A DNA stretch of 64,000 bases, from positions 62,001-126,000 of the forward strand of contig NW_026921048.1 of assembly GCF_032062105.1 (NCBI RefSeq), written 5' to 3'. Position 1 is the first letter of the stretch, and every line of letters starts with the position of its first letter. Below are positions 13,842-62,400 of the stretch, piece after piece. Source of the stretch: Saccostrea cucullata (lineage: Eukaryota). The position numbers and the translations under genes are program-made. Under the pieces are notes generated by a model, which had not been told where the DNA came from, did not search any database, and saw only the letters and a list, made by a program, of their open reading frames with translations.

Positions 13842-16800
13842 CTAGAATTTGATAATAAGAGGGATGATGAAAAAACACGTGTAGAACATGGAGCTTGTAG
13901 CTGTAGATGCTGCGTTTGTTTTGTCGGGATCGTCATCATATGTCCCGAAAAGACGCGCAGGTCCACCACTTCCGTCATAAATCTTGATAACCGGAACGTA
14001 AATAGTGCTTCCGCTTTCTGGAATGTTATCCAGATTGGCAACATTCTCAATCCCTACCACGTTATTTTTCCCCATGATCAAGTGACAGGGTAATGTTTTG
14101 GACTGTCCATAATCGGTAGAGGGCGTGTCCACTCCAATAGCGTTGACCTGTCGCTTGTTTATCAGCCACGTGACAGCTTCCTCGTGCCAGCTAGGAAAAT
14201 GAAATGTAGAAGAATCCAGAAGCTGCATGGTTCCCCATACCAGAGTATTGTTTAAGTACTTTTGAGTCCAACCCGAGTTCATTATAACTACGGAATGCCT
14301 GGGAATTTCTCCATATTTTTCTTCGTATTTCAAAAGATCATCTGTGGAAACTCTATAAAGACAGAAAATCATTTATTAAAAATCCTCCCTAGTTTCGGCG
14401 TATTGCAAAAAGCAATACTTACACGTTATGTAAAATTTTCAGTTTGTTTGAATTAGCCTACCAAATGTTACAACTATGCAATATTTGTGTACACTTTTCG
14501 TACTTGTAATTCTGACATGTTCAAGCATATTTAAAAATTCAACCTTTCTTACAATAAAAATGCTTTCTTTTGTGATCAGAACGGAAAATAAAGTTGCAGT
14601 CCTTGCTGGAAAAATACATAATCCACGTATGAGCAAGCTTAATGGTTTATGAAATTTAAAGATGTGGGTCGAGCAGCAAGGCATGTACAAGTAAAATCTA
14701 TGTTATCCCCTTGAGAAGGCATGTTATCCCCTTTGATTTGATTAAGGGTTCACCAAAAATAATGGTACTGACTACTGGTTAGTGGTTATATACCTGTAAT
14801 CTGGATTGCTCTCGACCTTGGCTTTAACATTTATTATAACTCCAGGTCCATATAATTTTTCAATCGGGATTTGATGCGTCCTCCAAGTGCCCTTGAACGT
14901 ATGAACTGGGGCGTCTACATGAGTGCCCATATGCTCTGGCATTGCGATGTGATTGTTTTCTAGCCTAAAAAATATATAAATAAAGACTTTTTGTACATAA
15001 TAATATTGTTATCCTTTCGTAAGAATGAATTTAATATTATAGAACTGAAAACTATGCCCGCATCATAATTTTATCATTACAGTCAATATAATTAATACCG
15101 GTGAAAATGTGAATGTGAGGTTTTAATATACACATTCTTATAAAACTGCTATAATCGTATGTAAACTCAATCATTTGTGTTTTTGAGGAAAACATTACTC
15201 GAGCCTTCGTGTCTTGATTTATTAATAAAAAACAAATCAAAGATCTTCCAGGAAAAAAAATATTGAAAATTCTTTAATTTATTGAGTTTTAAGGTTTCAT
15301 CAAAGGTCAACATGTCCAAAATTTTTTTTTACAATAGCTCCAAAACAATTTGAGGTTTTACCTTAAAACTTTTACAGTTTATAAATATATCATTGTTTTA
15401 CAGATAGAAAGTATCACTTAAAAACAAGTATTTAAAAAAATTATCGAGACAAAAATATCAAAAAATTCGCATATTTACATGCTTATCGATGAAGGGCAAG
15501 TTGGACGAGAATGGTCTCTGAAAGGATGTTATTGAAAGCGTGGCATGGCTGTATAAAGACAAGATCCCTTAAAATTCGCCATTTGCAATGTACTTTTGAT
15601 ATCAAATCTTAACATTTGGACAAAATACACGGGGAAAAACAACTTTCTAGAGGCTATCGAAGTCCTACTTGCCCTTCAAGTTATTAGTAAGCATATTATG
15701 TTTCTGCAATGAAAACTTTCACTAAAACTACGGAATTCATTAGGTGTATTTTTTTTTTAAATATAGGTTTTTTATTTAAAGAATTTTTCTTGATCAATAT
15801 TTTTTTAAGTATTTGTTATCCAGTGGCATTTTCTGTCTGTTAATCAATGATATATTTATTAAATGTAAAAGTTTCAACTTTAAAAACCGCATAGTTTTGG
15901 AGCTATTGTAAAAATGAATTTTTGGACAAGTTTATCTTTGGTGAACCTTTGAAGAAAGAAAGGAGAATCTCGAATGGTTACATGAAATGTAAATTTATTA
16001 TTGAATCGTGCAAAGTAAGATAATCTTTAATTAATTTTCAATATTTTCTATCCAGAGTTGTCGTTCCCGCTACGTTACCACACACAATTCTGTCGTTATA
16101 AATTCTTGAAAAATTCTTGGAAAATTTTTAATCGACGAAAAATGTTGTTTTTTTTGTTGTTTTTTTTAACGTTTTTAATCATATGATATTCCTTATCGGT
16201 TTATAGGATTTATAATCAATTATTTATCCTTATAAATTACTCTTCAAAATGGTTCCATTAAAAATTTATAATGAATAAATGAACAGCTTCTATCAGTACT
16301 GTCCATATCATATTAGATATTTGTCTAGTTCATTATAAATCACATGTAACTGTTAACATGTCCATGACGTTAATGTGTACAATTTTCAACTTTTCATTGC
16401 ACTGACATACAAAGTGTCGGGGGGCTTTAGTGAAATTAAAACAGTCTTAAAATCTCATTTGTACGACGGCGTATTCGTGCCATATTGACAATGTAGAGAA
16501 AATTTTTCAAAATCGTTTGTACGATTTTTAAAATCGTTTAAACGATTTAGAAAATCGTTCGAACGATTAAGAAAATCGTCTGTACGTTTTTTAAAAATCG
16601 TTTGAACGATTTAGAAAATTGTTTGAACGATTAAGAAAATTGTTTGAACGTTTTTTTAAAATCGTTTGAACGATTTCTTAAAATCGTTTGAACGATTTTT
16701 TAAACCGTTTGTACGATTTTTAAAAATCGTTTGTACAATTTTTTTGAAATCGTTTGTACGATTAAGAAAATGGTTTGTACGATTTAGAAAATCGTTTGTA

Positions 16801-23811: not shown

Positions 23812-24643
23812 TTACTTCATATATTTAATTTGTTTGACATTTCCAGAGAAAAATTCAGCAACGAAAATGTTATCACTTTTGTCTATGCACAAACCATATG
23901 GAAATTCCAAATCAGAGTTATCTATGAAACGAAGGAACTGTCCATCCATGTCTAGGATGTGGATATAATTATGATCACGGTCTGATATAAGTACATGTAT
24001 CTAACACTGACTGTCTGTTGCGATACCGGATGGCCAAAAATGGCTTTTTCAGAGAAGAAGAAAAGTGACCAGTGTATCTGAACCTGAGTTCACCACACTG
24101 ATTGACCACCACTACGGCACCAGCGTCAAGATCAGACACACAGATATCCAGGTTTGTTTTCACTGTCTTTTTAAGAAAACTTTTAATGTTAAAACATTTA
24201 ATTAAACCATTACATGCTGGACTTGTCCAAATTTCCCTTTCATTAATGAAGGCAACACAGCAGAGGAAGTTATCAATGACATACCCAGTATTTATTTAAT
24301 TGACAAGTTTCGGCCTTTTCATTAGCTTCTTGCAATTGGTTTCCGTTTCCGATTTCTTCAATTTGGAGCCCCGTTCTTCTTTTCTGATAGACATGGGTGT
24401 TAGAGTTCCAAATAATTTGTAAACCTCTTCCCAGACCCTGTTTACATTTTGAGTACTAAATTTTGGTATTGATACAAGTACATCACCCAGTGGTGGAAGG
24501 TTTCTGAATTCGTCTATTTTGGACACGTATTCCAAAGTCAGGGTCACTTCATTTGATTTCTCAATTTTCTTCATTGTAAGCAGTGTTTGATCAATGTCAA
24601 ACTGTATCTGTTCCATTTCACTTAAGTTCTCCTTAATACACAC
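23812..24643 (-). pseudogene. TRIM-like (coiled-coil + NHL/beta-propeller) gene fragment, probably a pseudogene
   Basis: A coiled-coil segment (24296-24643 ORF) followed by NHL-type pieces [29 protein letters not shown] and [48 protein letters not shown]. The pieces are broken by frameshifts, stops and an apparent internal deletion. Confidence 0.75.
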
Positions 24644-25450
24644 AAAAGGAAAGAAGTAAAGCTAAAACAAGGTATAATTTAAACACATATATTTGTAAGT
24701 ACAGGTACATGTACATGTAACTAAAAGAACCTATGACCTTTAAATTTGCCTTTAATTAATTCTAAACTGCATGAAAACTTGACTGGTATATACCCTAAAG
24801 GCTGCCCCATTTAGACACTTTCCATTACTGGAAATCTTGGCTACAGTGTAATCACTTCCCTCTTTCCATCATCACCATTCTGGGGGGGGGGTGAATAATG
24901 AATTTCCCGTGCCCTTGAAATATGGCGTAAATGTGAACTGACAACAGGTCTAATTAATATATAGATAAAAGGAGAAAGCTTCAGGATTTATCACAATGGA
25001 CTTATAGTTTTTTGGCTTTTAAAACATAATTGTGATTCATGCCGTTTTTCTTTGCGTCTAAAAATTGCGTCAGCTAATTTCAGCGATCTTTTAAATTTTC
25101 TATTTTTTTTCATTAAAAATGGGTTCATTCAGATTCCAGACAAACATACTGTAATAAACAAATTACACCATCCTGAAACCAAGAGCATTTGCCCCGAATT
25201 AAAATCGGGCTCGAGATTATCTGAAAAAGAACACTTCCGGATCAACAAGGGAAGGGAAAAATGAATGAACTTTCTAAGTTTCTTTAAAAACTGTGAAAAG
25301 GTGAGGATTATCATGTAATTTATAGAATTGATTTCAGCCAATTGTTAAAAAACCCTTCTCATTTTTTGTTTTGTAATCGAGATGAATACTGCAAATGGAA
25401 GGAACACGTTTTTTTTTTATTTAGGATCTAGGCCCATCACTTGCATCAGT

Positions 25451-26972: not shown

Positions 26973-28746
26973 ATGAGAGTCAGGATGAAGAAGCTAACCT
27001 TAGGAAATTTCGTGCTAGCGGTGCTTTTCTCGCTAGCTGCTCTCTCTGTGTACTCCATGTGGAGCATTCCTGCCATTGAATCAAGTTTGTTGTTAATTAA
27101 CTTCTAACTACGGACTGTGAGACATTAACAATGCTGAAAGAAATTAAAAGATGACGGAAAGTTTCATTTGTATGCATTTTAATTTATATTCCATTTATCA
27201 AATAAGTGGAAATTTTAGCGAGAGGCAAATTTAGCGAATTGTCCCTAAAAATAAGTACATGTATTTTACTTTAAGCAAGTTGTAATTAGTGATTTTCAAA
27301 TACTCACTTAAGAAGCTATTAGAAATAAAATGCAATAAATTTTGAGCAATATTTAATTTTAGTGATCTCAACACCGTTGCTAATGTTACCGGGTTCACAT
27401 AGTAACAAGAAAGATTCGATGATGTTCTCAATCTTTTATGTAGCAATAACAAATGTTTGAAATAATTCCAAAAATAAAATCCTTGCTAAAAATTCTGCAT
27501 ATAACATGTATAAGGTATTTATTCCTTAAGTCCACAAAGTTAATAAAGTCTATACAATTGTAGTTTCATTTTAAAAAGAAGAATTCTCCATATCTTTCCA
27601 CAGGTAGAAAGCTAGTGGCAAGAAAAAACTTCAGGAATGTTCAGGTGATTTTTAAGATACAAAAACTTCCAGCTTGTTTTCAAAGATTTTAAAAGCAGAT
27701 AATTTTTTCATAAAGATTTTGCATTATATCCATTCATAGAGAAGGAAAAAAGTTGGACATGTAGGAGCACTAAAGTATATTTATGATATTATATTTTGTT
27801 TTTTTAGAAAGTCACTTTTTCGCACCCCAATGAACAGCCCCCTGGATCCGGGCTCAAGCAAATCGGAGAAAAAAATTTCGATTACAACCGAAAGGAACGT
27901 CTATACAACCTCCGCAAGAAATGCCAGCAAGCGGACGAAGCCAAACTTGTCAAAAAGGACATTCCCGCCAAGAAACTGGGTCACATTATAGTTAATGACC
28001 AGTATAAAGTTCTCTACTGTTACATACCAAAGGTTGCCTGCACTAATATGAAGCGGGTGTTCTTGATTCTGACTGGTAAAATGAACAGCACGAACCCACT
28101 AGCCCTGAAAAGTAAAGATGTCCATATGGCGTTCGATAAATATCTGACTTACCTGGATTCTTACTCCGAGGAGGAGGTTCAGGAGAAGTTAAAAACGTAC
28201 AAGAAACTGGTGTTTGTCAGGGAGCCATTAGAAAGACTACTGTCTGCATATCGGAATAAATTCACCGAGAAAAGCCCGTATTTCCATAAGAGGTTTGGAA
28301 GGAGGATTATTCGTAGATTTCGAGAAGGATCCAATAAGACCAAAGAAATTTTAGGGAATGATGTTACTTTCTTAGAATTTGTTAAGTATATTACAGATGA
28401 TGACACTATAGAAAGAGAAGGCTTTAATGAACACTGGGCCCAATATGTATCTCTGTGTCAGCCGTGTTATGTGCAATATGACTTCATAGGAAAATATGAA
28501 ACCATTGACGAAGATGTGAACTTTGTCTTAAAAGATCTGAAAATTGACCAACTGATTAAATTCCCAAAACGAAATGCCACATACAAGCGATCAAAGACCC
28601 AGGATCAGTTGGAGTCGTATTACAAGACAATCCCTAAAGATCTCCTGCAGAGACTGTGGAAGATTTACCACACAGATTACAGCCTCTTTGATTACCCCTA
28701 CCCAGGGGTCCTGGAGAAATTCCTCGCCCCCCAGGAGGAGGTCTAA
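26973..28746 (+). CDS. CHST11: Carbohydrate sulfotransferase 11-like (Sulfotransfer_2 family, Golgi type II membrane), 363 aa
   Basis: Exons 26973-27084 (MRVRMKKLTLGNFVLAVLFSLAALSVYSMW, TM anchor), 27604-27644 (41-nt micro-exon needed to restore frame) and 27808-28746; 1092 nt in total. 5'-PSB motif YCYIPKVACTNMKR, 3'-PB motif FVREPLERLLSAYRNK, plus NEHW..LCQPC..YDFIGKYET. Family is certain; exact orthology is not. Confidence 0.9.
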
Positions 28747-34431: not shown

Positions 34432-37180
34432 CTATCCGTTGTATGGGACAGGATCAAAATAACTACGAACTGTTTGCGTTCCAGGAGGCGCGGATCCCAA
34501 TGACCCTTCATAGGGTGGTGGACACACAGGGTTTGGAGCAGGCTGGTAGACCACGTTTCCATCAAATGTATTTTGAGCTGGAAAAAAAGAAATCAAAAAA
34601 TGCAGTCAATAAAACTGATATTTACTGATCTATCACGCGGCTTTCATTTCAAGAACTTTTGCTTACTGGATAACTAAAGTTAAATTGTTTTCATATCCCT
34701 TGATTTCACCCATTTCTTATATGCTAAATAACTTTTAATTTTTTGTAAATTTTAGATTTAAAAACATCATCTAGAGTATACTTCTAGTAAAAATATTTGA
34801 ATAGAATAATCCATTACAAATATGGGGTAGAACATGTATAAGTCTTAAGAAAATAATTTTAAAAAGTAAGATATGAGTACTAGTACTTGAATTGATGTTA
34901 GGTTGGATTGGTCTGACAATCACGTTTCCGTCATTTTTCTTCTTGCAGACTTTAACATATATAATCACCACGATGCACACAAGGATCACAAGTCCTACGA
35001 TACCTCCAATGACAGCTCCAGTGATCACCCCGGTGGACGCAGAACTGCAACAAATTAAATGACAGTAAAAAATTTTCTACTGAACCATCAGTTAACTGCT
35101 TCAGTTATTTTCCCTTCTACTGAAAATGTATGAATCGTATCAAATCAGAAATACAAAGAACAGAAAACATGCTCAAAGTCCAATATAATAGTTCGAATTG
35201 GAACACAGAATTTTAAAAAAATATTTAGAAGTGGGATCAGGCGTCATGGAGGTTCAAGTTTCCCCTGTCGACTGGTCATCTGTCACGTGCTTCTTGTCAT
35301 GATAGAGAAATCCGGAAACAATTCAGCATGTGAATTGGACTATCAATTTGTATGTTAAATGTCATTCAGCATTTGACTCAGTGATAGATTGTACTTTTTT
35401 GACAAACTCATTAAATTGACAAGACCATAGAACTTTGAATTTTTGATATTCTTACATGTATTTCTAAATTGGTTGCCTCGTTTTACAAATTGTTTATTTT
35501 CTTCCGAGAGATGGACAGACGAATACGATTTAATGCACCCTCACTTTTTCACTCAATATACATTGTTTTGTTATATTTCAACTACTGCGGTAGCCTAGCC
35601 AGATCACTAGTGCCCTGTTCACAAGGAGAGTTTAATTCGCAGTAAATTATGCCCTGTTCACACGACGAGTTTAATTCGCAGTAAATTAATGTGAAGTGAA
35701 CTAATGCAAATCAAACTAATGCGAATTAAATTTCGTTCACACGACAGCTAATGCGAAGTAAACTAATGCGCATTAAAATAATTATTTTTACTTCTGCAGC
35801 TCGGCGTCAGCACGGCTATTATTACGTCATTAGCAAATCACGTAACCTTATGCAGAAGCAGATCCTTTTGACATAATGGCAAAGTGTTTCTATACACATA
35901 TTAAAGATTAACAAAATTTTCCTTAGTTTTTCACTCAAAAATAACACAGATAACTGTACCTATAGCTGACCACCGACAAGTGGCATTTGACTAAATTTTG
36001 CCATTACACATGCGTCAGAATTTAATTTGAATTAGCTTGGCTTAGCGTTCACACGGAGCTAATGCGAAGTAATTTAATGCGCAGTAAATTAATTCGAATT
36101 AAACTAATTCGCATTAAATTCTCCGTGTGAACGCTAAGCGAAGCTAATTCGCAGTAACTTTATGTTTAATTCGAATTAAACTCTCTGTGTGAACAGGACA
36201 TAGGATTACATAAATAATACTGCAGTGTTATTTGTTGCTCATTTCTGATGACTATTCAAAACATCATAAAACACAAGCAGAAAACTTTGCAATTTCTTCA
36301 CATTATGTCAAAATTATTTTGTCTGTAGGCATTGCAGTGATATCTTAGGTCGACAAGTGCGAAATAAAAAAAATTAAGATTTTCTAATTTGTTGAGAAAT
36401 CTTAGTAATTTGAAACTTTTGTCTTGACAATTTCATAATTTATACTCAATAATTTGTCCATTATTTTTTTTCAGTCTGAGACATTTTTAGCATTTTTAGA
36501 CAAAAACATTTGTACAATTTGGCATGATTCCATGAAAAAATCATGGAAATTGAGTTAAAAATGACTCCACAACAAGTTTTTATGAAAATTGGTTTTTCAT
36601 TCCAACGTATAGGGTAAAATTAATACAATGATGACTCACTTGTGGCCCTAAACTGTACCTAGATGCAAGACCAGTTACACTTTTAATTTTAATTTTAAAT
36701 GCCTTACCTACTGTAACTGTTCTTGTAATAGGAATAGTAGATACAGTAATAGAACTTGTATCCGTTAACTGAATAGTAGGAGTAGCAGTAATTCCCACGT
36801 GCACATTGAACAGGACTGAAAACTAAAAAAACATATATTAATAAATATACAGGAAAAAACAAATATAAAAATATTAAGGTTATGATAAAAAGAATTTCAT
36901 GACAAGGAGCACACGGCGGGTGAGACCAGTCGACAGGGAATGCACCGTCACTACTCCATGGCATCTGATCCTACCTCTGATGTTTCGGAGGTCAATCCAT
37001 GTTTCCTCTGCTCCTGTTTTGTATTGATTTATTGACTTTTGAGCTTGAATACATTTATTTTTATAAATTTCATTTAAAGAAAAGAAAAAGAAAAGAAATA
37101 AAAATTTAAATAAACTCACACGTTAAAAGAAGAAATTTCAGAATGGTGAGCCATCGATTGGTGTTGCTATCGGTGTCCAT
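34432..37180 (-). CDS. Tyr-rich single-pass membrane protein A (CYYR1/Shisa-like), 159 aa
   Basis: Exons 37180-37120, 36822-36708, 35044-34887 and 34577-34432 (480 nt, GT-AG, frame kept). Signal peptide, ectodomain ARGNYCYSYYSVNGYKFYYCIYYSYYKNSY, TM GVITGAVIGGIVGLVILVCIVVIIY, VKVCKKK, cytoplasmic CPPPY. Confidence 0.8.
35170..35400 (-). mobile_element. Penelope-like element 3' end fragment
   Basis: Reverse complement carries tgaccagtcgacaggggaaac..cctccatgacgcctgatcccac, shared with the copies near 36910, 39650, 53285 and 13525. Confidence 0.6.
35650..36200. mobile_element. TIR MITE with duplicated left terminus (35611-35649)
   Basis: ta|tgccctgttcacacgacgagtttaattcg ... cgaattaaactctctgtgtgaacaggaca|ta, with internal taattcgcagtaaa/taatgcgaagtaa repeats. 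Confidence 0.75.
36890..37050 (+). mobile_element. Penelope-like element 3' end fragment (in intron 1 of Tyr-rich gene A)
   Basis: catgacaaggagcacacggcgggtgagaccagtcgacagggaatgc..ctccatggcatctgatcctacctctgatg. Confidence 0.65.
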
Positions 37181-37514
37181 GCCTTTTGATGATGATGTTG
37201 TTGTTGTTGCCTTTCTAAATGTCTTGTGTTGTTGTCTGATCCAAAAATACACATAAATGGTCTCAACAGAGGTCTTCCAAGAGATATGTGTTTTAAAATA
37301 CAGGACATAGATAAGAAGGATTTTAAATGCCTTCTACATATGGGTGCATATTACACAGTCAGATAATATTCAGCCAAGTACACAAGTTCTTATCCTTATC
37401 ATCTAAGTACACTGGTACTAAACTTTTTTTTTTTTTAGACATTATTTATCTCTTATATCATTTGAAAGACTATATGTTTTTTTGTTACTTTCATTTTTAT
37501 GGTGTAAAGAAAGT

Positions 37515-37666
37515 NNNNNNNNNNNNNNNNNNNNNNNNNNNNNNNNNNNNNNNNNNNNNNNNNNNNNNNNNNNNNNNNNNNNNNNNNNNNNNNNNNNNNN
37601 NNNNNNNNNNNNNNNNNNNNNNNNNNNNNNNNNNNNNNNNNNNNNNNNNNNNNNNNNNNNNNNNNN
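37515..37666. other. Assembly gap
   Basis: Run of N. Confidence 1.
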
Positions 37667-38678
37667 TTTCGTTTTGGCACCCACTTGATAAGATAGTATG
37701 TGCAGGAAAGTTGAAACATGAAACTTATACTTAATATTTTCTCAAATTAAATTGACATATTTATATATAAATATTCGTTAAAAGGCAGAACAAGTATTAC
37801 ACAGCCAATTGCTCCTACCTGAAACATTAAAATCAAGATAATATTAATTTATGTTAGATATGTAACGTTGATAACTTTTCAAGAACTTACATTTAATTAA
37901 CATGAAGATGAATTAAACTTACATTTAATTAACATGAAGATGAATTAGCATGAAAATCATACGCTGATTTTATGTTTATCCTTTTATTTTAACTTAACGT
38001 GATCCATTAATCATATCAATATCAATAGACATTAAATCAAAGTTAATTTAGGTCAACAATTAAGTTTTGCTCTTTTTTCAGTTTTAACAACAAGAGCAAT
38101 TAAAGAACAAAAATGAGCATTGCTATAACGATCAATGTTATGCAAGTTAATGCAATACTGAGTATGTTTTAATACGTAAGTATATTTATTTAAACAATAA
38201 AATGCTTTCTTTGTTTGTTGTTACTGGAATTAACTGAAGCAGCTGTTGCAGGAAAAAAAAATACATAACCCGCGTAAGCGGGTAATATAATTTTTTCTGC
38301 AATTTGTTTCGGGTCCTGTCGTTCATTGACTGGACTAATAGCTGCGACCGTTAATTCCAGTAATAACAAACAAAGAAAGACATTTTATTATTTATATTTA
38401 GGCTATATCTGTTTAAATAATCATTTGAAGTGGGATTAAAAAGATTAATTATTGTATTAATGATGCGAACGTCTTTATACATTTCATTGATGGAACAGCC
38501 ACTGAATAAGAAATCTGTACAGGCGACATGCCTAATGTAGTTCATGCATATATTAAATAAAGGAGAAACTATTCAGTAGATGTAAATATATATTTAATAC
38601 ACACTGATTATTTTCCTTTCATTGAACAAAAAATACCAGGAACGTATAGTTAATTCAAATATAATTTTTGACATTAAA

Positions 38679-38767
38679 TTAGAATACTGGAGGTCCTGGA
38701 TAAGGTGGCGGCAACACAGGGTTAGGACCATACTGGTAGATTATGCATTCATCATATATGTTTTGAC
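38679..38767 (-). CDS. Isolated paralogous terminal exon of the Tyr-rich PPxY gene family (alternative last exon or remnant)
   Basis: ttgtttgtgtttgcag|GT CAA AAC..: QNIYDECIIYQYGPNPVLPPPYPGPPVF*. Same phase as, and homologous to, exon 4 of genes A (QNTFDGNVVYQPAPNPVCPPPY) and B. Confidence 0.7.
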
Positions 38768-39269
38768 CTGCAAACACAAACAAATCGAAAATTAATGTAA
38801 AATTCATTGAAAATATGCACCAGATATACAGGTTTCATCATTGTACCATCACAAGATTAATAAGGATTGTTGAAGGAAGGTTGAATTTTGAGCATTATAG
38901 AATGTTTATAAATTCTTAATATTTTAGAAATTTGTGAAACACATAATTTACAACCTTAACAGGTCAGAAAATATTTATCAATCCATGCACCAATATTTCT
39001 GTTTGCCCTTAAAGCAATTGAATACAATATGCACAGAACACATAATTATAAAAAAGAAGTGTCTTGCAACACTCAAACTTAAGAAAGAACATGTAATGTG
39101 TTACCGAGAAATTTGAAATACATGTATTCAAATGAAATAGAGTAAGGTTTGATTACCTGAAATGATGTAAGACACGGTAAAACATACCACAGATTCTGAC
39201 ACATCTGTTTCATATTTTGATATTTTACTTTAAAAAGACGTTAATCTAACAACCAACCAAGCTCTATGA

Positions 39270-39800
39270 TATACCTGATGTTTTAAACTTTACAATCGTC
39301 AACTTCCCTTACTTATGCAGCAATATACCTTCATCACATGCATACGGAGTTTATATATCTCAGTTGATTCAACACGCAAGAACATGCTCTACCTATGAAC
39401 AATTTCTAAAACGGGGTAAATTAATAAACGTACAAGTTGATGAAACAAGAATATCGACAGTCTCGTTTAAATTCATCATTTCGTAAGTTGTATGGTCGAT
39501 ACAATGAACTTGTCAGCATACATAATTTGTCATTGAGTCAAATGCTACTGACATTTTTTCATACTAATTGCTAGTCCATTATTTATACATAAATTGACGA
39601 CGAATTTTTTTCGTTATTTTCCGATCATGACTAGGAGCATACATGTACGACGGGTTTGATCGGTTGGCAGGGAAGGCTCACTCCTCCATGGCACCCTATC
39701 CCACCTCTGATGTTTTGGAAGTCCGTGTTTGCTCTGCTCCTTAATTGTATTTTGTATTGTTTTATTTATTTTGATCTTGAATACTGTTTGTTATATCCAT
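39270..39800 (+). mobile_element. Decayed Penelope-like retroelement: RT C-terminus plus 3' end (probably C-terminal-RT, Naiad-type)
   Basis: Translates as NFTIVNFPYLCSNIPSSHAYGVYISQLIQHARTCSTYEQFLKRG..SSFRKLYGRYNELVS. The reading frame ends with no GIY-YIG domain after it and is followed by the conserved 3' motif. Clade assignment is from memory of PLE RT motifs. Confidence 0.7.
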
Positions 39801-41211
39801 ATGCTTCATCGTATGTATGAAAAAAGTCCTGTTATACACCAATGAAAAGTTGTGTATTTCAAAAAGTTTAAATCATAAACTTTTGTGCAAATTTATCGTT
39901 CCTTTTTCGAATATATTTTATATCTTTTTATAAGAGTCTAAAATATGATTCTCTGATTTTTCTACAATTTATAATTTAAAATTAGATAGTTTGAAATCAA
40001 TTATATCTACAGTGAATAATACGGCTTTGTAGATTATGATAGGATCTTCAATTATTTGTAGTTGGATATGATTTATATTCAGACAATTGTGTATATTTTT
40101 TTTAAATATCTGAATCTTGGCGAGAGGATAAAAACTAAAAACAAATTGGATTTAAATTATACCCTGAAATTTTCCCTATATAGAAAATATTCTACAATAA
40201 ATATCTAAGCTGCGAAAATATTTTTTCTCAATACATTAAATACAAAAGTACAGAGAAACCATGTCCAAAAATCATTTTTGACGTCATAACTATGATATAT
40301 CAACTAAAAAGTCCATGGATTGATATTAACGAAGGGTAAACATTGGGGAACACTTTTAAAACACAAGAATTTATTCTCTATTTATGTTATCGTGTCTTAG
40401 CAAAATGATTTCACATCAGTTTAACCTCCGTTGGGTTTCTTCGCATGCCTAATGGAAGAGGGAAATATTTTTTTCAATAATGGAATTTAAAAAAAAAAGA
40501 GAAGTTCGAGAATCTGTTGTTTCAGATAAGTTTTGTTAGCAAGCTATCGTCGGATAATTTTCAAGCAAGGTCATTTAATCAAGTTGTGAACGTATTGTAC
40601 CCACATTTAAAATTTTTCAAAGTTTAAAAGTTTTTGTTTTAATATCCACCATCCTTTCCTATGAAAGAGAACGCATCGCTTTAATTCCAATATATGAAAT
40701 TTATTATATTCACTAAATACATGTTTAAAATAAAATATAAAATCTGAGTGTCATCTTTGTTGTAAAGATCATCCAATTAAAATACAGCCTTAAATGATGA
40801 AAGAAGTATGATTTCAGACAGATCTATACAAACAGCAATGTCAAACATTTTTGTTTATTTTGTATTCTGTTCATATATATCCACATATCACACAATATAT
40901 GTGTTAAAAGATCCCTAACAAACAAATTTTCTTTACAACAAAGCACCTGTTTGTGTATATAAATCCTAATTCATTTTGCATTTAATGCTCAGCAATTACG
41001 TAAAATTCAGTCACTGCTTTCCCAATGTCAATAAATTGTCTAAACGGGTATTTTTTAAAATGTGAATAAAGTTCTTTGAATCACCTAATACCGAACATCT
41101 TTTTGCATGTATTAATCCTTTCAACGTTAATAAAGTGACATTAATCTGTGTATTGCATTTAAATTTGAACTGATTTTTCTTTATTTCCTTCACTTTACTC
41201 CATGAGTAATT

Positions 41212-42399
41212 TTAGGCAGATTGCCCAGCGTATGCTGTTCCTTGAGGCCCTTGATTGTTAGGAGGGTAGACGAAGTTATACTCCGGTGGTGCCGGAGGCC
41301 CCGATGGGGGCGGTGCCTGGTAAGGAGGGGGTAGGTAGGGGTTAGGCGCTGGATGGTAACCACTGGGTCCTGAGCCATAGGCGTTATTAGCTGAAACAGA
41401 GTATTGTAAAATATCTCAAAATTAATCATTCTCATTTTGTATTTAAAAAAATTAGTGCTTTATATACATTTTATTAACATTTTTGGATTGGATAAAAAAA
41501 GCTAAATATAAGAAGTATAATGCTGAATACTTACAGAAAATAAATAAAAACATGGATTTTAATACTTGAATGGACGAAGGAAACCGTTGGTTGTGAGGGC
41601 TGGACAATCACTCGTCCATGGTTAGTTGTCTTGCAGACTTTCACACATACAATGACCACAATGGTTAATAATATTATAAAACCTACAATTCCGCCAATGA
41701 TCGCACCAATAATGGTTCCCACCGAAGAGTAACTGCTGTAAATAATACAATTATACATTGTCATAAACGTAAAAGGATAATGTAGATTAGAAAAAAAAAC
41801 TGAAATATAACAAAAAAAACCCCCATAAATTTCTAATTAATATGCTAGAGAAATTCATTATCGTGTAAATTTCGAATGAAGATGCACGTGCAGAATAAAA
41901 TATCTACCATTTTATTCTTAAGTTGTTGTAATACTTGTAAAATCTGTGGACCAAAAGACCAATTGCGAATTTATGTTCCTGTGATTTGTTACTAACTGTG
42001 ATACAGCGATATAAAGTATTCACGAAAGATAAAAAAATTACTGTCAGTCAAATTGACCCAAATCATTCAATTTTGAAAGAGAAAGTTAACTTACCTGTAA
42101 TAATAATAGTAGTAGTAGTAGTAAAAACAGTAATAATACGTTAATCCAGCATAGGAACTGTAGTAGTAATAGCAATAACTAGAACAATGAATGACGGTTA
42201 ACGCTGAAAAATATATGGGGAGTTGACGATAATTTATGATAGTGTTGTTTATTTATCGTGAAAACTCAAATCGTAACATATTGTTGAATTATTATCATAG
42301 AAAATAATTTTAAAAATGTGATTTGAAGTCCGAAATTTTGTTTACATTGAAATACTTACATGTACACAATGACAGGATAAACAACCAAAATATCGTCAT
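41212..42399 (-). CDS. Tyr-rich single-pass membrane protein B (CYYR1/Shisa-like), 165 aa
   Basis: Exons 42399-42360, 42203-42095, 41735-41566 and 41390-41212 (498 nt). Signal MTIFWLFILSLCTSLTVIHC, ectodomain SSYCYYYYSSYAGLTYYYCFYYYYYYYYYSSYSS, TM VGTIIGAIIGGIVGFIILLTIVVIVC, tail with LPPPY and PPEY. Confidence 0.85.
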
Positions 42400-43371
42400 C
42401 TTCCTTCATGTTTGGTGACTAGTTTAGAATTGGTAGAACAAACTTGTGAGTGCGACTGAATGAACACTTCCTGTTCAAAGCTTTCACGCATATTTGTTTT
42501 TTTTTATGTATATTTGTTTTCTGAATAACAACTTCGTTTCGATGTAAAACTTCTTGTTCTTTACAAATTTGGCAAATATCTTGTTGACGTAATGGTGCAT
42601 TGTGCAACTAAATAAAAATCAATCTTGCACGATTTTCTTTTCAATTGAGAAGTTCTTGGTAAACATTATAACCTGAATACACTTCTGAGTTTTTTAAATC
42701 ACCTATAGAATTCACATTGTCCCATTTTCATGCAGCAGAAACATTGGAAGTCTAAGAAGTCCTAAACTCACCTTCGAGATTTGTTTTGTTTTAAAAGAAA
42801 TTGTCAAACAATGTTCCTTATGCAGAAAATATCGTTGATTATCGGGGTCTTTTTTCATAATTGAGAATATTTTTCGTTCAATGAAGTGAGATATTGCCCT
42901 ATTTAATTAAAATATGTACCATAAATTCGTTTACTGAGCAAACTAGGTCTTTTAGATACATCATTTTTATTCAAAGAGTGATACCGCCAATTATATGTTA
43001 ATATACCTTAGCATATCCAAAAAAAACTTCAATTGTAAAATTTAATGACCATGCAAATAGCCATTTAATCCTGTCCAAATAATTGTAAATCTTTGATTTA
43101 ATTTGTACTCAAGTTTGAACTCATATATAAATAATGATTAAGTTTTATATCATTACTATTTTTTTTTATTTCAAAACAATTGCATCGAGAAACATCTAAC
43201 ATGCTTTTTTTTATTGAAGACAAAAAAATATCATTATTAAAATCTTTATTCGCCGTAACAAATCACATACAAAGAATCAAAGAAAGGAGGGAGCGGTGTG
43301 TTTCTTCCACCTCTGCCCATGATACATGTATATTAATCATTTTAATCAAAGATCAGATTACACGCTAACAA

Positions 43372-44940
43372 TTAGTCTTGTTTAAGTTTCCCTTTGATGC
43401 AACGGCGACAAAGCACCCTAAAAATATATATTATCAAATATATAATTGATAGAGTTAAGATGGATAATAAAAGAAAAATGTCTAGTCCAAAGTATTTGTA
43501 GTCAGATAGAGCATGGGATGAAGACCGAAGATGAGAACTTCCGAAGGCGGTCACGTGATGTACCCAGTATGCCGCTCTCTGAGATGCGTTCAGTGGTTTT
43601 GATCTGTATATTTCTGACGCGATCTTTATTTTCTTTGAGTAAGTCCCATTGTAGACAACTTCCCTTATACTCCTCTCCAATGCCTCCGAAGTTAATGTGT
43701 TGTGATTTAGCTTCACACCGAACGATTTAATAACGATTCTATCAGCATTATATTCCTGGTCACCAGAAATCGGTATTGCAATCATAGGTACTCCATGATA
43801 TAGTGCTTCATATTGCCCACTGTTTCCACAGTGCGTTATGAATGCCTTGACTCTTTTGTTGGCAAGAAGGTCATACTGAGGTAACCAAGGAACACTTAGA
43901 ATATTCCTTTCCTGAAATTGGGACTTATCTATTTTTGCAATAAAATGTATTTCTGGAACCTTCTGAAATGCTTTGAATAGAATATCTTTGAACTCCTTTG
44001 GCATGATTGATAGGCTTCCAAACGTTACAATGACTACACCGTCCTTAGCAGCATCAATATGGCGTTGAATCTTGGTTGGGAGAGGGTTCAGTGAATTTGA
44101 TAACGACATTCCTCCTACAAATGCTATATTTGGAAGTGAAGGCCTCGGGTAATCTAGAACTTCGTCCTGATCCATCAAGTAAAAGCTAAAAGAGTTCGTC
44201 TTCTTGTAAAATTCTTCCATGCTAGATGCTGAAAGATATTTGCGAACAACATCGTCGGGAAAGAATAACGATTTGCCAAATGTCCCGATCAGGATCATTC
44301 CTATGCGCATAAGAGTACTTTGTAAACGTGACATTAATGAATTAGAATCAGGAATCGGGAACACAGGTAAATCGGGAATAGCAAGATAATCCGAAGGAAT
44401 TCTATAGATCGTGTAAGGAAGGAATCCTGAAGCACAATGAATAATCTCTGGAATGGATAATTGTTGTGCAATAATAAGGAATGGTAAAGAAAGCATTGGA
44501 TCAATAATGACCGTCTTAAATTGCTGACCCTCCAGTTTCTTGAAAATATCAGAGTCTGACATGTACAGGTGTGTAATGTTGACCATTATGCTTTGCATCT
44601 TCTGTCCAAGGGATAGAAAGCTCTTATTTTGAAAACTGCCTTCCACAGCTATATTCACAAGTTTATCAATCTCTTTTGAGATGTTCCCCTTCTTGTCATA
44701 AGTGACAATGTCGCTCGAGAGGTCTTTCAACCCTGGGTGTTCTGCGAGTGTTTCCGTGACTAAAAAGGTCACGTTATGATTGTACTGACCAATGAGAATG
44801 TCCACCATGCCCTTCATTGGTCTCAGGTGACTGTATCCCGGGCCTGGTAGAACAAGGATGTTGTCCGAAGATACAATCTCTATGTTTACCGAAAGGTACA
44901 TGATAAATAAAACACGGAATAGGCAGGTTCTTTTTACCAT
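43372..44940 (-). CDS. UDP-glucuronosyl/glycosyltransferase (GT1), intronless CDS, 522 aa
   Basis: Start MVKRT directly follows a tttttacag acceptor. Signal peptide, NILVLPGPGYSH (catalytic His), UGT signature WLPQYDLLANKRVKAFITHCGNSGQYEALYHGVPMIAIPISGDQ, C-terminal TM and KLKQD dilysine ER-retrieval motif. Confidence 0.93.
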   Translation of the reverse strand: MVKRTCLFRVLFIMYLSVNIEIVSSDNILVLPGPGYSHLRPMKGMVDILIGQYNHNVTFLVTETLAEHPGLKDLSSDIVTYDKKGNISKEIDKLVNIAVEGSFQNKSFLSLGQKMQSIMVNITHLYMSDSDIFKKLEGQQFKTVIIDPMLSLPFLIIAQQLSIPEIIHCASGFLPYTIYRIPSDYLAIPDLPVFPIPDSNSLMSRLQSTLMRIGMILIGTFGKSLFFPDDVVRKYLSASSMEEFYKKTNSFSFYLMDQDEVLDYPRPSLPNIAFVGGMSLSNSLNPLPTKIQRHIDAAKDGVVIVTFGSLSIMPKEFKDILFKAFQKVPEIHFIAKIDKSQFQERNILSVPWLPQYDLLANKRVKAFITHCGNSGQYEALYHGVPMIAIPISGDQEYNADRIVIKSFGVKLNHNTLTSEALERSIREVVYNGTYSKKIKIASEIYRSKPLNASQRAAYWVHHVTAFGSSHLRSSSHALSDYKYFGLDIFLLLSILTLSIIYLIIYIFRVLCRRCIKGKLKQD

Positions 44941-45424
44941 CTGTAAAAAATAGTAACAATATTGTATTTGTAAATCCTGATGGTCATTCCTTTGTTTTAA
45001 AAAAATAATGTTAATGTGTAAAACAAAAGTACAATTCCTATAGTGATAATAGGAAAAAAATGAACACGTCTCAGTCATATGGAGAATGTACAAATAAGAT
45101 TGATTTAATAAGGAAAGCGCATATTAATTTAAATTAATTGGAATACAATAATTAACAATTGACATAATTCATAATAAAAAATCCTAGGTCCGCCCGTTAA
45201 AAAATATGGTCAAAGTTCACGTTCTTCTAAATTCATGGTCCAACATTAAAATTACACTTCGGTAAATGTTTGTCAAAGGATTTCAAACTTTGGAATCCAG
45301 AGGCAATAAATATTTAATTTGTTACACATTTTTGAAACACGAATGTCTTAGCATCAACCATTAAAACAGTCAAATTGGTCAGTACTTAACAAATATAATT
45401 TAAGAATAGAAATTAATTAAAGGG

Positions 45425-56940: not shown

Positions 56941-58090
56941 AATTCTAATAAACCGGGACATCACACCAAAGCTTTATTTCCTTGGAATCTCAATTCCCGG
57001 GGGACGGACTTATTGAGACGAGGACCGTGGCTGAGACGAGCCGGAGCGGTTACTTCTATTTTCACGCCAGTACCTATACCATGGAAACCCATATGAAGAG
57101 GTGATTCTGTGTGTGTTTGTGCCTGTGCGTTTATATTCCGTTATTACCAAGGAACGACAGAGTGAAAAAGTGTGTCAACTTTACGCGAATTCAGTGTTTC
57201 ACGAATGGCGGGAATACGCACGGATCCAAAGGCGCGGCGAACCACGTGACCCGCACGAACCGCATTGATCCGCGAGGAAACTCGGAACTAAGCAACGAGG
57301 CCTCAGGTACTGTGTAATTCAGTGATTACTTATCTGTTCTTATATGATGTGATTATCCTGTGTTGTATTTGTGTCTGTATTTGTGCTGTGAAAGATTGAA
57401 TTTGTTTTGTCATTTTGTCATCTTCTTGCATAGGGAATTCCCGAGTTTATTTTTAGATCTAAATTTAGAACAAGCTTCCGGAAATTCTTTAAACAGCTGA
57501 TCGATCAATTTTGTTTTTCGATTTCATTTTCATTTCTGTTTAACATTTGAACTTTATTTTTTTTCTTGGTGTTTATAAAAGCAATATTTTTTTAATTCAG
57601 GCCTGCTATTTATTTACTTGTAAGGTTATTTGTTTATTTTGTTTTGATTTTTTTTTCTGAAAAATTGTAAAGTTTATCATTTCTGTTTTGGAATTGAAAT
57701 TTATTTGTGTACTTTTGGAAATTGATTATACCGGGAATTAGTTAAAAAAAACCTTGTATTAGAAATTAGGTCATCATTTCTTTGCACTTCCCTTGCATGC
57801 TACTAACCTTTGCACTGACATGGCAACTTTGACCTTTAGTGACAGATGATGTGCATGAGTGTTACTTTGTCTGAGTGTGTGTATATGCTTGCCAATGATA
57901 TTTTTCATGAGATTTGCATATTGCATATCTGCGCTGCGTTTTTATGAATTGATATAACAGGTGATTACAGGTTACTTAATGTACTTTATCAAGTTTATTA
58001 CTAGTAAGTGATACATTTGAGTGACCATTAGTTGAACTTTAGTGTTATTGAAAGTTTGTTTGACTTGTGTAGAAAGTTGAAGAGTCTAAA

Positions 58091-59401
58091 ATGGCAGATA
58101 AGGTTGAAGAGTCTAAAAAGGCAGATAAGGTGTCTGAAAAACTCAAGAAGTTACTTGATAAGGCTAAAGAAGAGGGTGGTTCATTGCATGAGGAAAGTAA
58201 GTTGGACTTTGCAGGTGTTTCAGAGGCAGATGTTCCAAAAACAAGTACTCCTGTTGTAAGTAAAGATCAAAAGCCATTAATGTTCCCCAATGCTAAAACT
58301 TCTGAACCATATCAATTCCCACCCCCTCCCAGTGTACCAGCTGACATTGGTAAAGGTGACCCCTATGGTGAGGTTAAATTTAAGAGTTTCAGTGGTTTAC
58401 CCCCTCAAAGCAATCCCTTTAAATTAAGTCCAGAAGGGAACACATCCCATTTTTATGAGGTAACACATTCTCAAATCCCTAGAATTCCCCAGTTTTCTGG
58501 TGATGAACCCCCACAAAAGGGTGATGTTACTTATAGAGAGTGGCGATATGAGGTTCAGTGTCTTATGAATGATCCTGAAATAAAAGAGACAGTTATTATT
58601 CAGAGTATCAGAAGATCTCTGAGGGGTACAGCTAAAACCATGCTTATTCCTCTTGGTGAAAAAGCTAGTGTACAAGAAATACTTGACAAACTAAATATTT
58701 TATTTGGTGAAGTGTCAAATAATGCTATGATCATGCAAGAGTTCTTTAATGCATATCAATTTCAGGGTGAGTGTGCAACATCTTTTGGGTGTAGATTAGA
58801 GAGCATGTTACAGAATGCAATTGACAATGGTTATTTGAATAAATCATCAAAGAATGATTTACTCCGTCATAAATTCTGGACTTCGTTGAGTTCTGATCGG
58901 TTAAAATCACAAACGCGTCATAAGTACGATACGCTTAAGAACTATGATCAGCTTTTACTTGAGATTAGAAGGGTTGAGAAAGAAATTATGATCAACAAAA
59001 AGAGTTCAGAAAAGGTGAGTCAAGGTGTTGATAAAAATCCCAGGTTACATCAACATGGTATATCAGTAGAAAGTGAAGCTGAGGAAAGAATTAACAAGAA
59101 AATTCAGAATTTACAGACAGAGTTAGAGGGTAAGATTGAGGATAAGTTTAGTCAGATTTTGATGAAACTTGATGCACCTAAAGTTGACTCTAGACAAGAT
59201 TATAGTAGAGGGAGAGGTAGCTTCAGAGGAAGACAGAGTACTAACCGAGGAAGAGGTGAGTATTTTAGGGGAAATTCTCACAGTAGTGACTCCTACAGAG
59301 GAAGTCGAGGAAACCTGCAAAGAGGTCAGTATAGAGGATATGGTAAGCCCAAGGGACAGTATCATAGTTCAGGGACAGAGAAGCAGGACCCAAACTTTTA
59401 G
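58091..59401 (+). CDS. gag: Gag, PNMA/Ma-like capsid, 436 aa, RG-rich C-terminus
   Basis: IPRIPQFSGDEPPQKGDVTYREWRYEV..IRRSLRGTA..FFNAYQFQGECATSFGCRLE capsid motifs. No CX2CX4HX4C knuckle. Confidence 0.92.
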   Translation: MADKVEESKKADKVSEKLKKLLDKAKEEGGSLHEESKLDFAGVSEADVPKTSTPVVSKDQKPLMFPNAKTSEPYQFPPPPSVPADIGKGDPYGEVKFKSFSGLPPQSNPFKLSPEGNTSHFYEVTHSQIPRIPQFSGDEPPQKGDVTYREWRYEVQCLMNDPEIKETVIIQSIRRSLRGTAKTMLIPLGEKASVQEILDKLNILFGEVSNNAMIMQEFFNAYQFQGECATSFGCRLESMLQNAIDNGYLNKSSKNDLLRHKFWTSLSSDRLKSQTRHKYDTLKNYDQLLLEIRRVEKEIMINKKSSEKVSQGVDKNPRLHQHGISVESEAEERINKKIQNLQTELEGKIEDKFSQILMKLDAPKVDSRQDYSRGRGSFRGRQSTNRGRGEYFRGNSHSSDSYRGSRGNLQRGQYRGYGKPKGQYHSSGTEKQDPNF

Positions 59402-59453
59402 TGGTCTCTACTAGTGGCCGAGGAGAGACCAGTGTACTCAGAGGTAATGGCCA
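59389..59453 (+). promoter_or_regulatory. Programmed -1 ribosomal frameshift signal (gag-pol)
   Basis: C CCA AAC heptamer in the gag frame (59389-59395), 6-nt spacer, stem tggtctct/agagacca (59402-09 / 59424-31). pol lies in the -1 frame. Confidence 0.75.
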
Positions 59454-62400
59454 ACAAATTAAATGTGACATGATTGGTGAGTCAAATGAAGTAGAAATTG
59501 TGTTACAGGGTGTGACTATGATGAATGCTTTATTAGACAGTGGGTCTATGATTACAACATTGTCTGATAAAGAGTACAACAATCTTATAGACAAACCAGA
59601 GTTGAAAGAGTTGTCTACCCTTGGACTGCAAATATCTGTAGCGGATGGTTCAGTTCTGCAGTACAAAGGTTACATTGAGTGTACAATCAAGATACTCGAT
59701 ATTGAACTATTTGTTCCAATCGTGATAGTACCAGATACAGAATTCAACAGACACTGTCCTGTTATTGTTGGAACAAATATTTTGAGAATCTGTAGAGATT
59801 ATTACTCGCATATGTCCTGTCAGTTACCTGATGCATGGCAATTGGCTATTGACAGTACACAGTGCAAGTCATATTGTGTCAAAACAACTAGTAAGAAAAA
59901 CATAACTATAGAACCATATCAGTCGCTTGTTGTCAATGGAATAGCAAGAGGTGTAGACAGAAATATTTCTACTTTAGTGACTGAGAATTCTCATAGTAAT
60001 GACAGTTATGCAGTGTGTCCGAGAGTTGTCACTTTGTCACAGAATATTGTCAAACCCAAAGTCAAAGTCAAGGTGTGCAATATTTCTGCTAAACCTATTA
60101 CACTGAGACCCAATTCAATACTTTGTTCTCTACAGGAAGCAAAAGTTATTGAAAGTGTATCTACCCTAAAGGGGAATAACTCTCAGTCAGATAAGGTGAA
60201 TCCTATAGAGTTGGGTGTGAAAGTAGATAGGACTTCATTATCAGAACCACAGTTTAAAACTGTGAACCAATTACTGACAAGGTATAGTCATGTTTTCTCC
60301 AGAGGTCCATTGGATCTAGGGAAGACAGACTTGGTCAAGCATAGTATCAAACTTGAAGATAAGACTCCATTTAAGTTACCTTACAGGAGAATACCTCCTG
60401 GTATGTATGATGAAGTGAGACAGCATATCAAAGAAATGCTAGAGGCAGGTGTGATAAGAGAATCCCACAGTAACTATAGTTCTAATGTTGTCTTAGTTAG
60501 AAAAACAGACGGTTCTCTTCGCTTTTGTATCGATATGCGTGTTTTGAATTCAAAGACTCGTAAAGACAGTTACATGCTACCACGCTTTGACGATGTCATT
60601 GATACACTGAGTGGTGCCAAGTACTTCAGTAAATTAGACTTGCGGTCAGGATACTGGCAGGTGGAGATAGAGGAACAGGACAAACACAAAACAGCTTTCT
60701 CAGTAGGTAACTTTGGATTTTACGAATGTAATAGAATGTGTTTTGGCTTGACAAATGCTCCAGCAACGTTTCAAAGACTTATGGAGAAATGCATGGGTGA
60801 AATTCATCTCAAAGAGTGTTTGATTTTTCTTGACGATATTTTGATTTTTTCCAAAACTTTCGAGGAACATTGTAAACGTTTAGAAAGAGTGTTTCAGAGA
60901 TTAGAAGAACATGGCTTAAAACTTAAACCTTCAAAATGTGAATTTTTCAAACAGTCTGTTACATATCTAGGTCATATTATTTCAGAGTCAGGAATTTCCA
61001 CGGACCCAGAAAAAGTTGCTGCTGTTGCGGAATGGCCAACACCTACCAATGTTAAGGAACTGAGACAGTTTTTAGGGTTCATTGGCTACTACCGGCGATT
61101 TGTGAAGAACTTTGCCAGTATCATTGCTCCATTAAACAACTTGTTGAAAGGCCATGAGACCAAAACTAGTAAGAAGCAGAAGGCACTCAGTAAACCAAAC
61201 TCCAAGAAGAAACCAGTACCATGGATTTGGACAGAAACGGAGGAAAAGGCTTTCCGGGACATCAAGGAAAAATTGACAACACCACCTATCTTAGGGTATG
61301 CAGAATACAACAAGCCTTTTATACTACATACGGATGCCAGTTCCAAAGGCCTGGGAGCAATCCTGTATCAAGTGCAAGGAGGTCAAAAGAGGGTGATTGC
61401 GTACGCAAGCAGAGGACTGAGACCCAGTGAGAAGAACTACGCAGCACACAAGCTCGAGTTCTTGGCGCTTAAGTGGGCGGTATGTGATAAGCTACATGAC
61501 TACCTGTACGGGAATCAGTTTGAGGTAATCACGGACAACAATCCGCTAACTTACATATTCACCAAGGCCAAGCTTGATGCAACAAGCCAGAGATGGGTAG
61601 CCAGTCTTACTAATTATAACTTCCAGATTTCATACAGAAGTGGAAACTTAAATGCAGATGCTGATGGTCTATCCAGGAAACCAGTGGTTTTTAAGGACAC
61701 GGTTAAGGCTCTTTGTAATGCTGCTTCAGTACAGATACCATGTTGCCAGAGTGTTTCCAAGGAAGATGCCCCTCAAGCCGCGGATGAGGAGATTTTCCCC
61801 AGCGACACACTCAGCAGTCATGACTGGATAGAAGAACAGTCCAGAGATCAAGCCATCAACAGAGTTCTACAGATCCTGAAAAGCGATTTCCGACCCAGGG
61901 GAGGAAATATACGGAAAGAATCTCCAGATGTTCAGAGGTACATGAGAATTTTGAAGAAGCTGCAAGTGGTAGATGGAGTTCTTTGTAAAACCGCTTTCCA
62001 GGATGGTAAGAGATCTTATCAGTTAGTAGTCCCAGAGAGTTTTCGATCAGTTGCATTACAGGGAATACATGATGATGTCGGACACCCAGGAAAAGATAAA
62101 ACCCTTTGGTTAGCCAGACAGAGATTTTATTGGCCAGGCATGGAGAACGACATCACTAGGAAGATAGAGACCTGTAATAGATGCATATGTAGTAAAACAC
62201 CTGTGAGACCTGCAGCAGAACTTATACCGATTGTGACGACAAGACCCATGGAGTTAGTTTGCATAGATTTTCTGAGTTTAGAACAATCCAAAGGAGGCTT
62301 CGAGAGTATTTTAGTCATAACGGATCACTTTACCAGATTCGCTCAAGCCATTCCATGTAAAAATCAAACTGCTCATACTACAGCTAAAGCTTTATTTGAT

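Follow-up and report, generated by a model that had tools for sequence, protein, structure and literature searches.

In a 64,000-nucleotide stretch of the Saccostrea cucullata genome (assembly GCF_032062105.1, contig NW_026921048.1, positions 62,001 to 126,000; the whole stretch is referred to here as the window), two minus-strand genes, termed genes A and B, encode miniature membrane proteins in which a short, tyrosine-rich ectodomain bearing two cysteines is joined to a transmembrane (TM) segment and a PPxY-containing tail. The question raised by this locus is whether such proteins comprise a new kind of system or a variant of one already known. As detailed below, A and B correspond to a reduced-cysteine variant within a known kind of protein, rather than to a new kind of system. 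In what we consider the fairly probable explanation, they are small single-pass proteins homologous to CYYR1 and Shisa-like proteins, in which a six-cysteine domain has been cut down to a two-cysteine Tyr-rich loop and which likely recruit NEDD4-family ubiquitin ligases via their PPxY tails.

A six-frame motif search combined with splice-site modelling assigned four coding exons to each gene, with all introns being GT-AG, in phases 1/2/1, and all frames being open. Gene A (159 residues) comprises exon 1 (37120..37180), containing the start methionine, the signal peptide and a phase 1 donor, exon 2 (36708..36822), encoding the end of the signal peptide and the Tyr-rich ectodomain (C-x13-C), exon 3 (34887..35044; 158 nt), encoding the TM segment and VKVCK and containing an internal donor after base 35004, and exon 4 (34432..34577), encoding a Pro-rich tail with one PPPY, followed by a stop codon. 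In gene B (165 residues), the start methionine, signal peptide and phase 1 donor lie in exon 1 (42360..42399), while exon 2 (42095..42203) encodes the end of the signal peptide and the Tyr-rich ectodomain (C-x14-C), including a run of nine tyrosines in mixed TAC/TAT codons. Exon 3 (41566..41735), which begins at a NAGNAG acceptor, encodes a Ser linker, the TM segment (GAxIGGIVG), VKVCK and a juxtamembrane segment, and exon 4 (41212..41390) a Pro-rich tail with PPPY and PPEY, ending in a stop codon. An out-of-frame ATG at 42407-42409 (minus strand), 10 nt upstream of the gene B start, opens a 24-codon overlapping frame; as the orthologue of B begins four residues earlier, a small deletion may have displaced the old start and may dampen translation of B. 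Intron 2 of gene A contains a repeat-rich palindromic element (35640-36180) that matches many contigs of sequencing run X1 and is likely a transposon of the miniature inverted-repeat type.

Support for the gene A model came from two sources. RefSeq protein P0077 (XP_062597645.1, isoform X2 of LOC134259060, labelled Saccostrea cucullata) corresponds letter-for-letter to exons 1, 2 and 4 of the model, with only the initial 41 nt of exon 3 included, such that the annotated exon 1/2 and 2/3 joints match those modelled. In X1, the sole sequencing run used and one whose RNA nature is only a guess, a 692-nt contig from a gene A homologue spans exons 2, 3 and 4, differing from gene A at 8 of 105 nt in exon 2 (36718-36822), 23 of 146 in exon 3 and 28 of 222 in exon 4, while a second contig contains the exact exon 3/4 joint (34577/34887). 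Because just two letters separate exons 2 and 3 in the 692-nt contig, and given the structure of P0077, no hidden Cys-rich exon is seen in gene A. The additional cysteine exons or other splicing that the original prediction had named as refuting it were thus sought and not found between exons 2 and 3 of gene A, the only gene to which this result applies. A Thr/Ser-rich alternative frame of exon 2 was likewise rejected, since the phase 1 acceptor at 36822, the end of the contig piece at this same base and P0077 all point to the Tyr frame. P0077 itself is a predicted TM-less, soluble form, in which use of the internal GT donor at 35004 (minus strand) removes most of the TM segment. Both X1 contigs instead carry exon 3 through to its end, and the internal donor has no counterpart at the equivalent place in gene B.

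The gene B model relies on splice sites and on the Saccostrea echinata orthologue P0001, which matches exon 3 with 85% identity. No exon joints of gene B were seen in the X1 reads, yet as X1 also includes intron-covering contigs at gene B and its RNA status is guessed, this is not evidence either way. With S. echinata also containing an orthologue of A (P0003), the orthologues, P0077 and the X1 contigs together argue that these are not chance open frames. A and B are real genes, already annotated.

Counted to the first glycine of the TM segment, the A ectodomain comprises 36 residues, including 12 tyrosines, 8 serines and Cys33 and Cys47, with 13 residues between them, while the B ectodomain comprises 35 residues, including 19 tyrosines, 8 serines and Cys24 and Cys39, with 14 residues between them. 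The small, Tyr-rich, two-cysteine ectodomain encoded mostly by one exon, as originally described, is therefore seen in both models; the tyrosine numbers given earlier (12/35 and 19/34) were exact, and the lengths were each one residue short owing to a shifted boundary. Tyrosine accounts for 34-54% of these ectodomains, from which aspartate, glutamate and N-glycosylation sequons are absent. Signal peptide cleavage was placed after the cysteine of a V-x-C sequence on the basis of the (-3,-1) rule and of relatives, rather than by a predictor. As the relatives carry Gly, Ala or Ser at this position, this cysteine is probably the -1 residue of the signal peptide and not a third ectodomain cysteine. 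Each protein contains a hydrophobic N-terminus and a single TM segment, and the AlphaFold model of an orthologue includes helices at 4-17 and 54-87. The shared GAxIGGIVG and VKVCK motifs and the PPxY tail were all found as claimed, with the tail of A containing one such motif (PPPY) and that of B two (PPPY and PPEY). VKVCK places a cysteine at the cytoplasmic end of the TM segment, and lysines directly follow the membrane span.

These features recall human CYYR1, the gene for which comprises four exons; the published primers imply that its exon 3/4 joint is in phase 1 (PMC1863428). Like CYYR1, A and B are proteins of about 155-165 residues with a signal peptide, a short Cys/Tyr ectodomain, one TM segment with a terminal cysteine and a PPxY tail, encoded in a signal/Cys-Tyr/TM/tail four-exon layout that includes the phase 1 exon 3/4 joint. 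They differ in having two rather than six ectodomain cysteines, no CCSYYAY box, up to 54% tyrosine, one or two PPxY motifs instead of three and, in the mollusc radiation, dozens of paralogues per genome. The broader STMC6/Shisa-like superfamily of Pei and Grishin (2012), comprising WBP1, WBP1L, VOPP1, TMEM92 and Shisa-like proteins, is defined by a six-cysteine pattern, according to papers citing its description (PMC5578492, PMC6125347). A and B share with its members the signal peptide, the single TM segment with its terminal cysteine, membrane-adjacent aromatic residues and the Pro-rich PY tail, but lack the defining C*C*CC*CC pattern; as such, they represent a reduced variant lying outside STMC6 in the strict sense.

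Several lines of evidence argue for common descent. CYYR1 (PF10873) was the commonest Pfam match, being obtained for 10 of 59 two-cysteine proteins (best E-value 3.1e-6) and 9 of 29 six-cysteine proteins, with WBP-1 matching 3 of the 29. Profiles of the two-cysteine and six-cysteine proteins aligned with a probability of 99.8% (hhalign; E-value 6e-28), with their first two cysteines superimposed. In the ESM Atlas, the nearest clusters were mollusc CYYR1-like or shisa-5-like proteins (0.90-0.94), followed by WBP1-like (0.88), Shisa5 (0.85) and VOPP1 (0.82). Moreover, the one six-cysteine gene read through in this genome, on contig C12851, has the same 1/2/1 intron phases as do A and B (with one donor being GC), and two-cysteine and six-cysteine members interleave in a low-resolution tree based on the TM segment only. 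Together, these observations indicate that A and B share descent with the six-cysteine members of STMC6/Shisa-like proteins, by sequence comparison, and place them in an extensive radiation of CYYR1/Shisa-like homologues in molluscs, in agreement with the earlier suggestion of a reduced CYYR1/Shisa-like protein. Relatives in the databases bear automatically assigned CYYR1-like or Shisa-like names, and such oyster entries are orthologues or paralogues of A and B, gene A itself being LOC134259060. Published counts of one to two shisa genes per protostome (PMC7653359) refer to a family drawn more narrowly than this radiation. No study of the mollusc forms was found in a literature search, the reach of which did not extend to Pei and Grishin (2012), where reduced-cysteine members may already be noted. 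Matches obtained with single exons in Pfam were weak and reflected generic TM segments, with exon 3 of B alone scoring 11.4 bits against PF10873, below the 31-bit gathering cut-off.

The distribution of cysteine classes was considered next. Successive protein searches yielded 2, 19 and 48 proteins and then 640 representatives at E<=0.001, the best 150 of which were used; organism names were looked up for 20 of the 150, and a few matches in the set are unrelated TM proteins. Among the members with a named source, those with two cysteines came from Saccostrea, Ostrea, Crassostrea/Magallana, Mytilus and the chiton Liolophura, those with four from Mytilus, and the cysteine-free relatives, rich in Tyr and Arg, from Ostrea and scallops. 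A freshwater mussel and a scallop supplied the six-cysteine members, a class that carries the C*C*CC*CC pattern. Several two-cysteine members derive from Logan contigs that, at about 1 kb, are probably transcripts. Across 59 two-cysteine proteins from oysters, mussels and the chiton, the first cysteine is invariant and the second at least 90% conserved. The four-cysteine forms retain C1, C2, C3 and C5, lacking exactly C4 and C6, suggesting that C4-C6 was lost as a pair; most simply, the two-cysteine forms would have lost C3-C5 next, keeping C1-C2. In an automatic count covering 121 proteins after rough trimming (in which odd counts were mostly clipped six-cysteine proteins and about 5 of 20 cysteine-free rows faulty gene models), the median tyrosine share of the ectodomain rose from 0.21 in six-cysteine to 0.51 in two-cysteine members. 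The TM-only tree, which was built from 60 columns and 104 of 114 rows and in which 11 of 101 branches have good support, calls for 14 changes of the two-cysteine label, just two of which are forced by strong branches, suggesting that the two-cysteine form arose repeatedly. Of the proteins automatically classed as two-cysteine, 47 of 66 contain L/PPxY and 64 of 66 the cysteine at the TM end. Four Pacific-oyster-type two-cysteine paralogues (P0009, P0010, P0011 and P0022) have short tails devoid of a PY motif and may be decoys or ligase-independent forms.

The family-size search originally proposed did reveal a family, although not one of two genes. When exon 3 of B was used to search this genome, 36 places were detected at E<=0.01; a PF10873 search added one locus and a six-cysteine protein query nine with a visible TM exon, as well as one doubtful locus. 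The genome thus contains at least 46 TM-exon loci, many in tandem and some perhaps haplotigs. Cysteine classes were read at 43 distinct loci with 1.5 kb flanks (exon 2 of gene A being taken from the window), giving 19 two-cysteine, 5 four-cysteine and 4 six-cysteine loci, 3 that are broken or contain one cysteine, 11 without an ectodomain exon in reach and 1 that is featureless. Two-, four- and six-cysteine genes hence coexist in S. cucullata. The six-cysteine member L050 (G000:C4814:7540-10767) stands apart from the others in its long Arg/Asp/Ser/His-rich tail, which contains PPQY and PPPY.

How A and B would act can be proposed from the human homologues. CYYR1 binds WWP1, WWP2 and ITCH through PPxY, is located in late endosomes and directs WWP1 to lysosomes (PMC11399591), while palmitoylated WBP1L binds NEDD4-family ligases and regulates ubiquitination of CXCR4 (PMC6991692). 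By analogy, A and B would undergo signal peptide cleavage, reside in plasma or endosomal membranes and be palmitoylated at the juxtamembrane cysteine. Their PPxY motifs would bind WW domains of a WWP/ITCH/NEDD4-type ligase, relieving its autoinhibition, with ubiquitination then targeting the ligase, the juxtamembrane lysines of the adaptor and a partner membrane protein, leading to lysosomal turnover. Given the pairwise loss of cysteines, the two that remain would form a single intramolecular disulfide (C1-C2) closing the loop, and the loop, the Tyr run and the Gly-rich TM segment could together provide the interface for self-association or for contact with a membrane client specific to each paralogue. 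The ubiquitin adaptor role raised by the original prediction is in this manner supported, as a putative one, by homology, intron phases and the CYYR1 and WBP1L studies. A working model for an adaptor with a reduced ectodomain is provided by TMEM207, Drosophila Commissureless, PRRG4 and yeast Rcr1/2, short single-pass PY-motif adaptors without a six-cysteine domain (PMC5578492, PMC6125347); the likeness is one of description, and a Tyr-rich two-cysteine loop is not described for them in the available portions of these papers.

A number of observations weigh against this explanation. The Pfam CYYR1 family was not matched at E<=0.001 by 49 of the 59 two-cysteine proteins, nor at E<=1 by P0001 and P0002, S. 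echinata proteins close to A and B. The profile alignment owes much to low-information TM and Pro-rich regions, and the matches returned by a PDB sequence search were unrelated TM helices, such as that of APP. In two of six two-cysteine proteins, the second cysteine was aligned to C5 and not C2. The disulfide hairpin for which structure prediction had been suggested was not demonstrated, as the ectodomain of the AlphaFold model of a two-cysteine orthologue has a predicted local distance difference test score of about 47-53 and strands of just two residues; the six-cysteine model does contain a hairpin (21-28/31-37) bearing C1 and C2. L/PPxY is absent from 19 of the 66 two-cysteine proteins in their predicted form, a number that includes some truncated or alternative isoforms. 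In a fly Robo assay, neither CYYR1 nor Shisa4 had an effect (PMC5578492), which suggests that clients are specific. Finally, the putative ligase-adaptor role is transferred to the oyster proteins from human CYYR1 and WBP1L.

Alternatively, A and B could belong to a set of diversifying recognition receptors, as originally raised, with paratope-like Tyr/Ser loops that would recognize a variety of self or microbial ligands and a PPxY tail that would internalize the complex. The large number of loci, many in tandem, would fit such a role, as would loop spacings that range from about 6 to 15 residues across subfamilies, locus L013, in which a TM segment of the L009 type is paired with a different loop, broken copies (L016 and L025) indicative of gene birth and death, and the enrichment of Shisa-annotated transcripts in mussel gill (PMC5549309). 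Selection was addressed in small paralogue groups, where power is low and no site models were applied. The ratio of non-synonymous to synonymous differences (pN/pS) was 0.39 in the ectodomain, 0.16 in the TM segment and 0.15 in the juxtamembrane segment of ten of the twelve L009-subfamily paralogues (L017 and L037 being left out), and 0.87 in the ectodomain and 0.16 in the TM segment of four of the five four-cysteine paralogues, the value of 0.87 leaning on a low pS (0.089) over 43 codons. The ectodomain accordingly evolves faster than the TM segment in these two larger sets, yet no set examined yielded an ectodomain pN/pS above 1 (0, 0.39, 0.87 and 0.30 in four small sets, the last from one further pair; another, near-identical pair showed no amino acid change). 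In six L009-type paralogues the 17-residue loop is identical, with 9 of 17 codons varying synonymously only (pS 0.29, pN 0), although this set was picked for its identical loop and is biased low. Of the two genes in the window, B has a loop in which only about 9 of 17 residues match the orthologue, despite the identity in exon 3, whereas the A loop is better conserved (14 of 15 residues) than the TM segment (26 of 31), a difference also apparent in the 692-nt contig. The claim of a variable loop next to a retained TM segment hence stands between subfamilies and in the larger sets, but not for gene A. The loop draws on a very restricted set of residues, and codon slippage can alter Tyr runs. 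Overall, it is constrained within subfamilies and changes episodically, partly through Tyr-codon slippage; positive selection was not demonstrated, and diversifying recognition is considered unlikely.

At the other extreme, the ectodomain could be a largely vestigial spacer, with cysteines having been lost under relaxed selection and the adaptor acting via its TM segment and tail alone. Cysteine-free relatives exist, one of which (P0058, from Ostrea edulis) falls inside the A/B clade of the weak tree, and TMEM207 and fly Commissureless are reported to function as PY adaptors without the cysteine domain (PMC5578492, PMC6125347). This seems improbable, since the cysteines and flanking tyrosines are invariant or nearly so in the 59 two-cysteine proteins, pN is 0 in the six-paralogue set, and the tyrosine share climbs as cysteines are lost, which would not be expected from drift alone. 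That tyrosine content, together with serine, could instead make the ectodomain a tyrosinase or peroxidase substrate, cross-linking or gluing the cell surface to matrix via 3,4-dihydroxyphenylalanine or dityrosine, with the TM-less isoform of gene A being a secreted form and the Tyr/Arg-rich cysteine-free relatives pointing the same way. Beyond composition, nothing was found in favor of this earlier proposal, which we regard as highly improbable: six-cysteine members and human CYYR1 are already Tyr-rich (PMC1863428), the protein offers a single 35-residue unit attached to a degradation-type tail, and the 35004-type donor is neither present at the same place in B nor used in the X1 contigs. A bolder and rather doubtful scenario would have molluscs removing the disulfides of the Shisa-like domain one after another (6, 4, 2, 0 cysteines), more than once, to give each genome dozens of minimal receptors with Tyr loops, every one of which links binding of a distinct extracellular ligand or membrane client directly to a NEDD4 ligase. 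The outcome would be a paratope-like repertoire of natural degraders, with splice forms devoid of the TM segment serving as soluble decoys.

To our knowledge, no function has been assigned to the lumenal domain of CYYR1/WBP1/VOPP1-type adaptors. Nor was a solved structure of this domain found by a PDB sequence search or by a Foldseek search with the six-cysteine model, the latter returning no matches at E<=0.001. The natural 6/4/2/0 cysteine series suggests that the disulfides would be paired as C1-C2, C3-C5 and C4-C6, as well as a minimal functional core of some 20-35 residues that could be synthesized and tested. Likewise, 40 or more such adaptors in one oyster would add to membrane-protein turnover in farmed bivalves a layer that has yet to be studied.

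Between genes A and B lies an orphan exon-4-like piece (38680..38767, minus strand), with a phase 1 acceptor, LPPPY and a stop after 29 codons, that is 74% identical to exon 4 of A over 92 nt. Its phase would fit an alternative last exon of gene B, and an AATAAA-type signal lies 82 nt downstream. No exon 2 or 3 partner was found within 38770-41200. S. echinata contains a third close gene (P0002), on a contig equal in length to those carrying P0001 and P0003, so that the piece represents either what remains of a third tandem copy or an alternative terminal exon for gene B. The genes flanking A and B, named by eye, show no link to them. Beside gene B, two or more long uridine diphosphate-glycosyltransferase-like frames without introns lie in tandem, at 43375-45123 (minus strand) and farther upstream. 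On the other side of gene A are a carbohydrate sulfotransferase-like exon (27808-28743, plus strand), a frameshifted TRIM-NHL-like fragment (23815-24661, minus strand) and cyclase/kynurenine formamidase-like exons (13845-15008, minus strand). Toward the far end of the window, at 58073-63549 (plus strand), are the Gag-like (442 residues) and Pol-like (1394 residues) frames, apparently uninterrupted, of a long terminal repeat retrotransposon.

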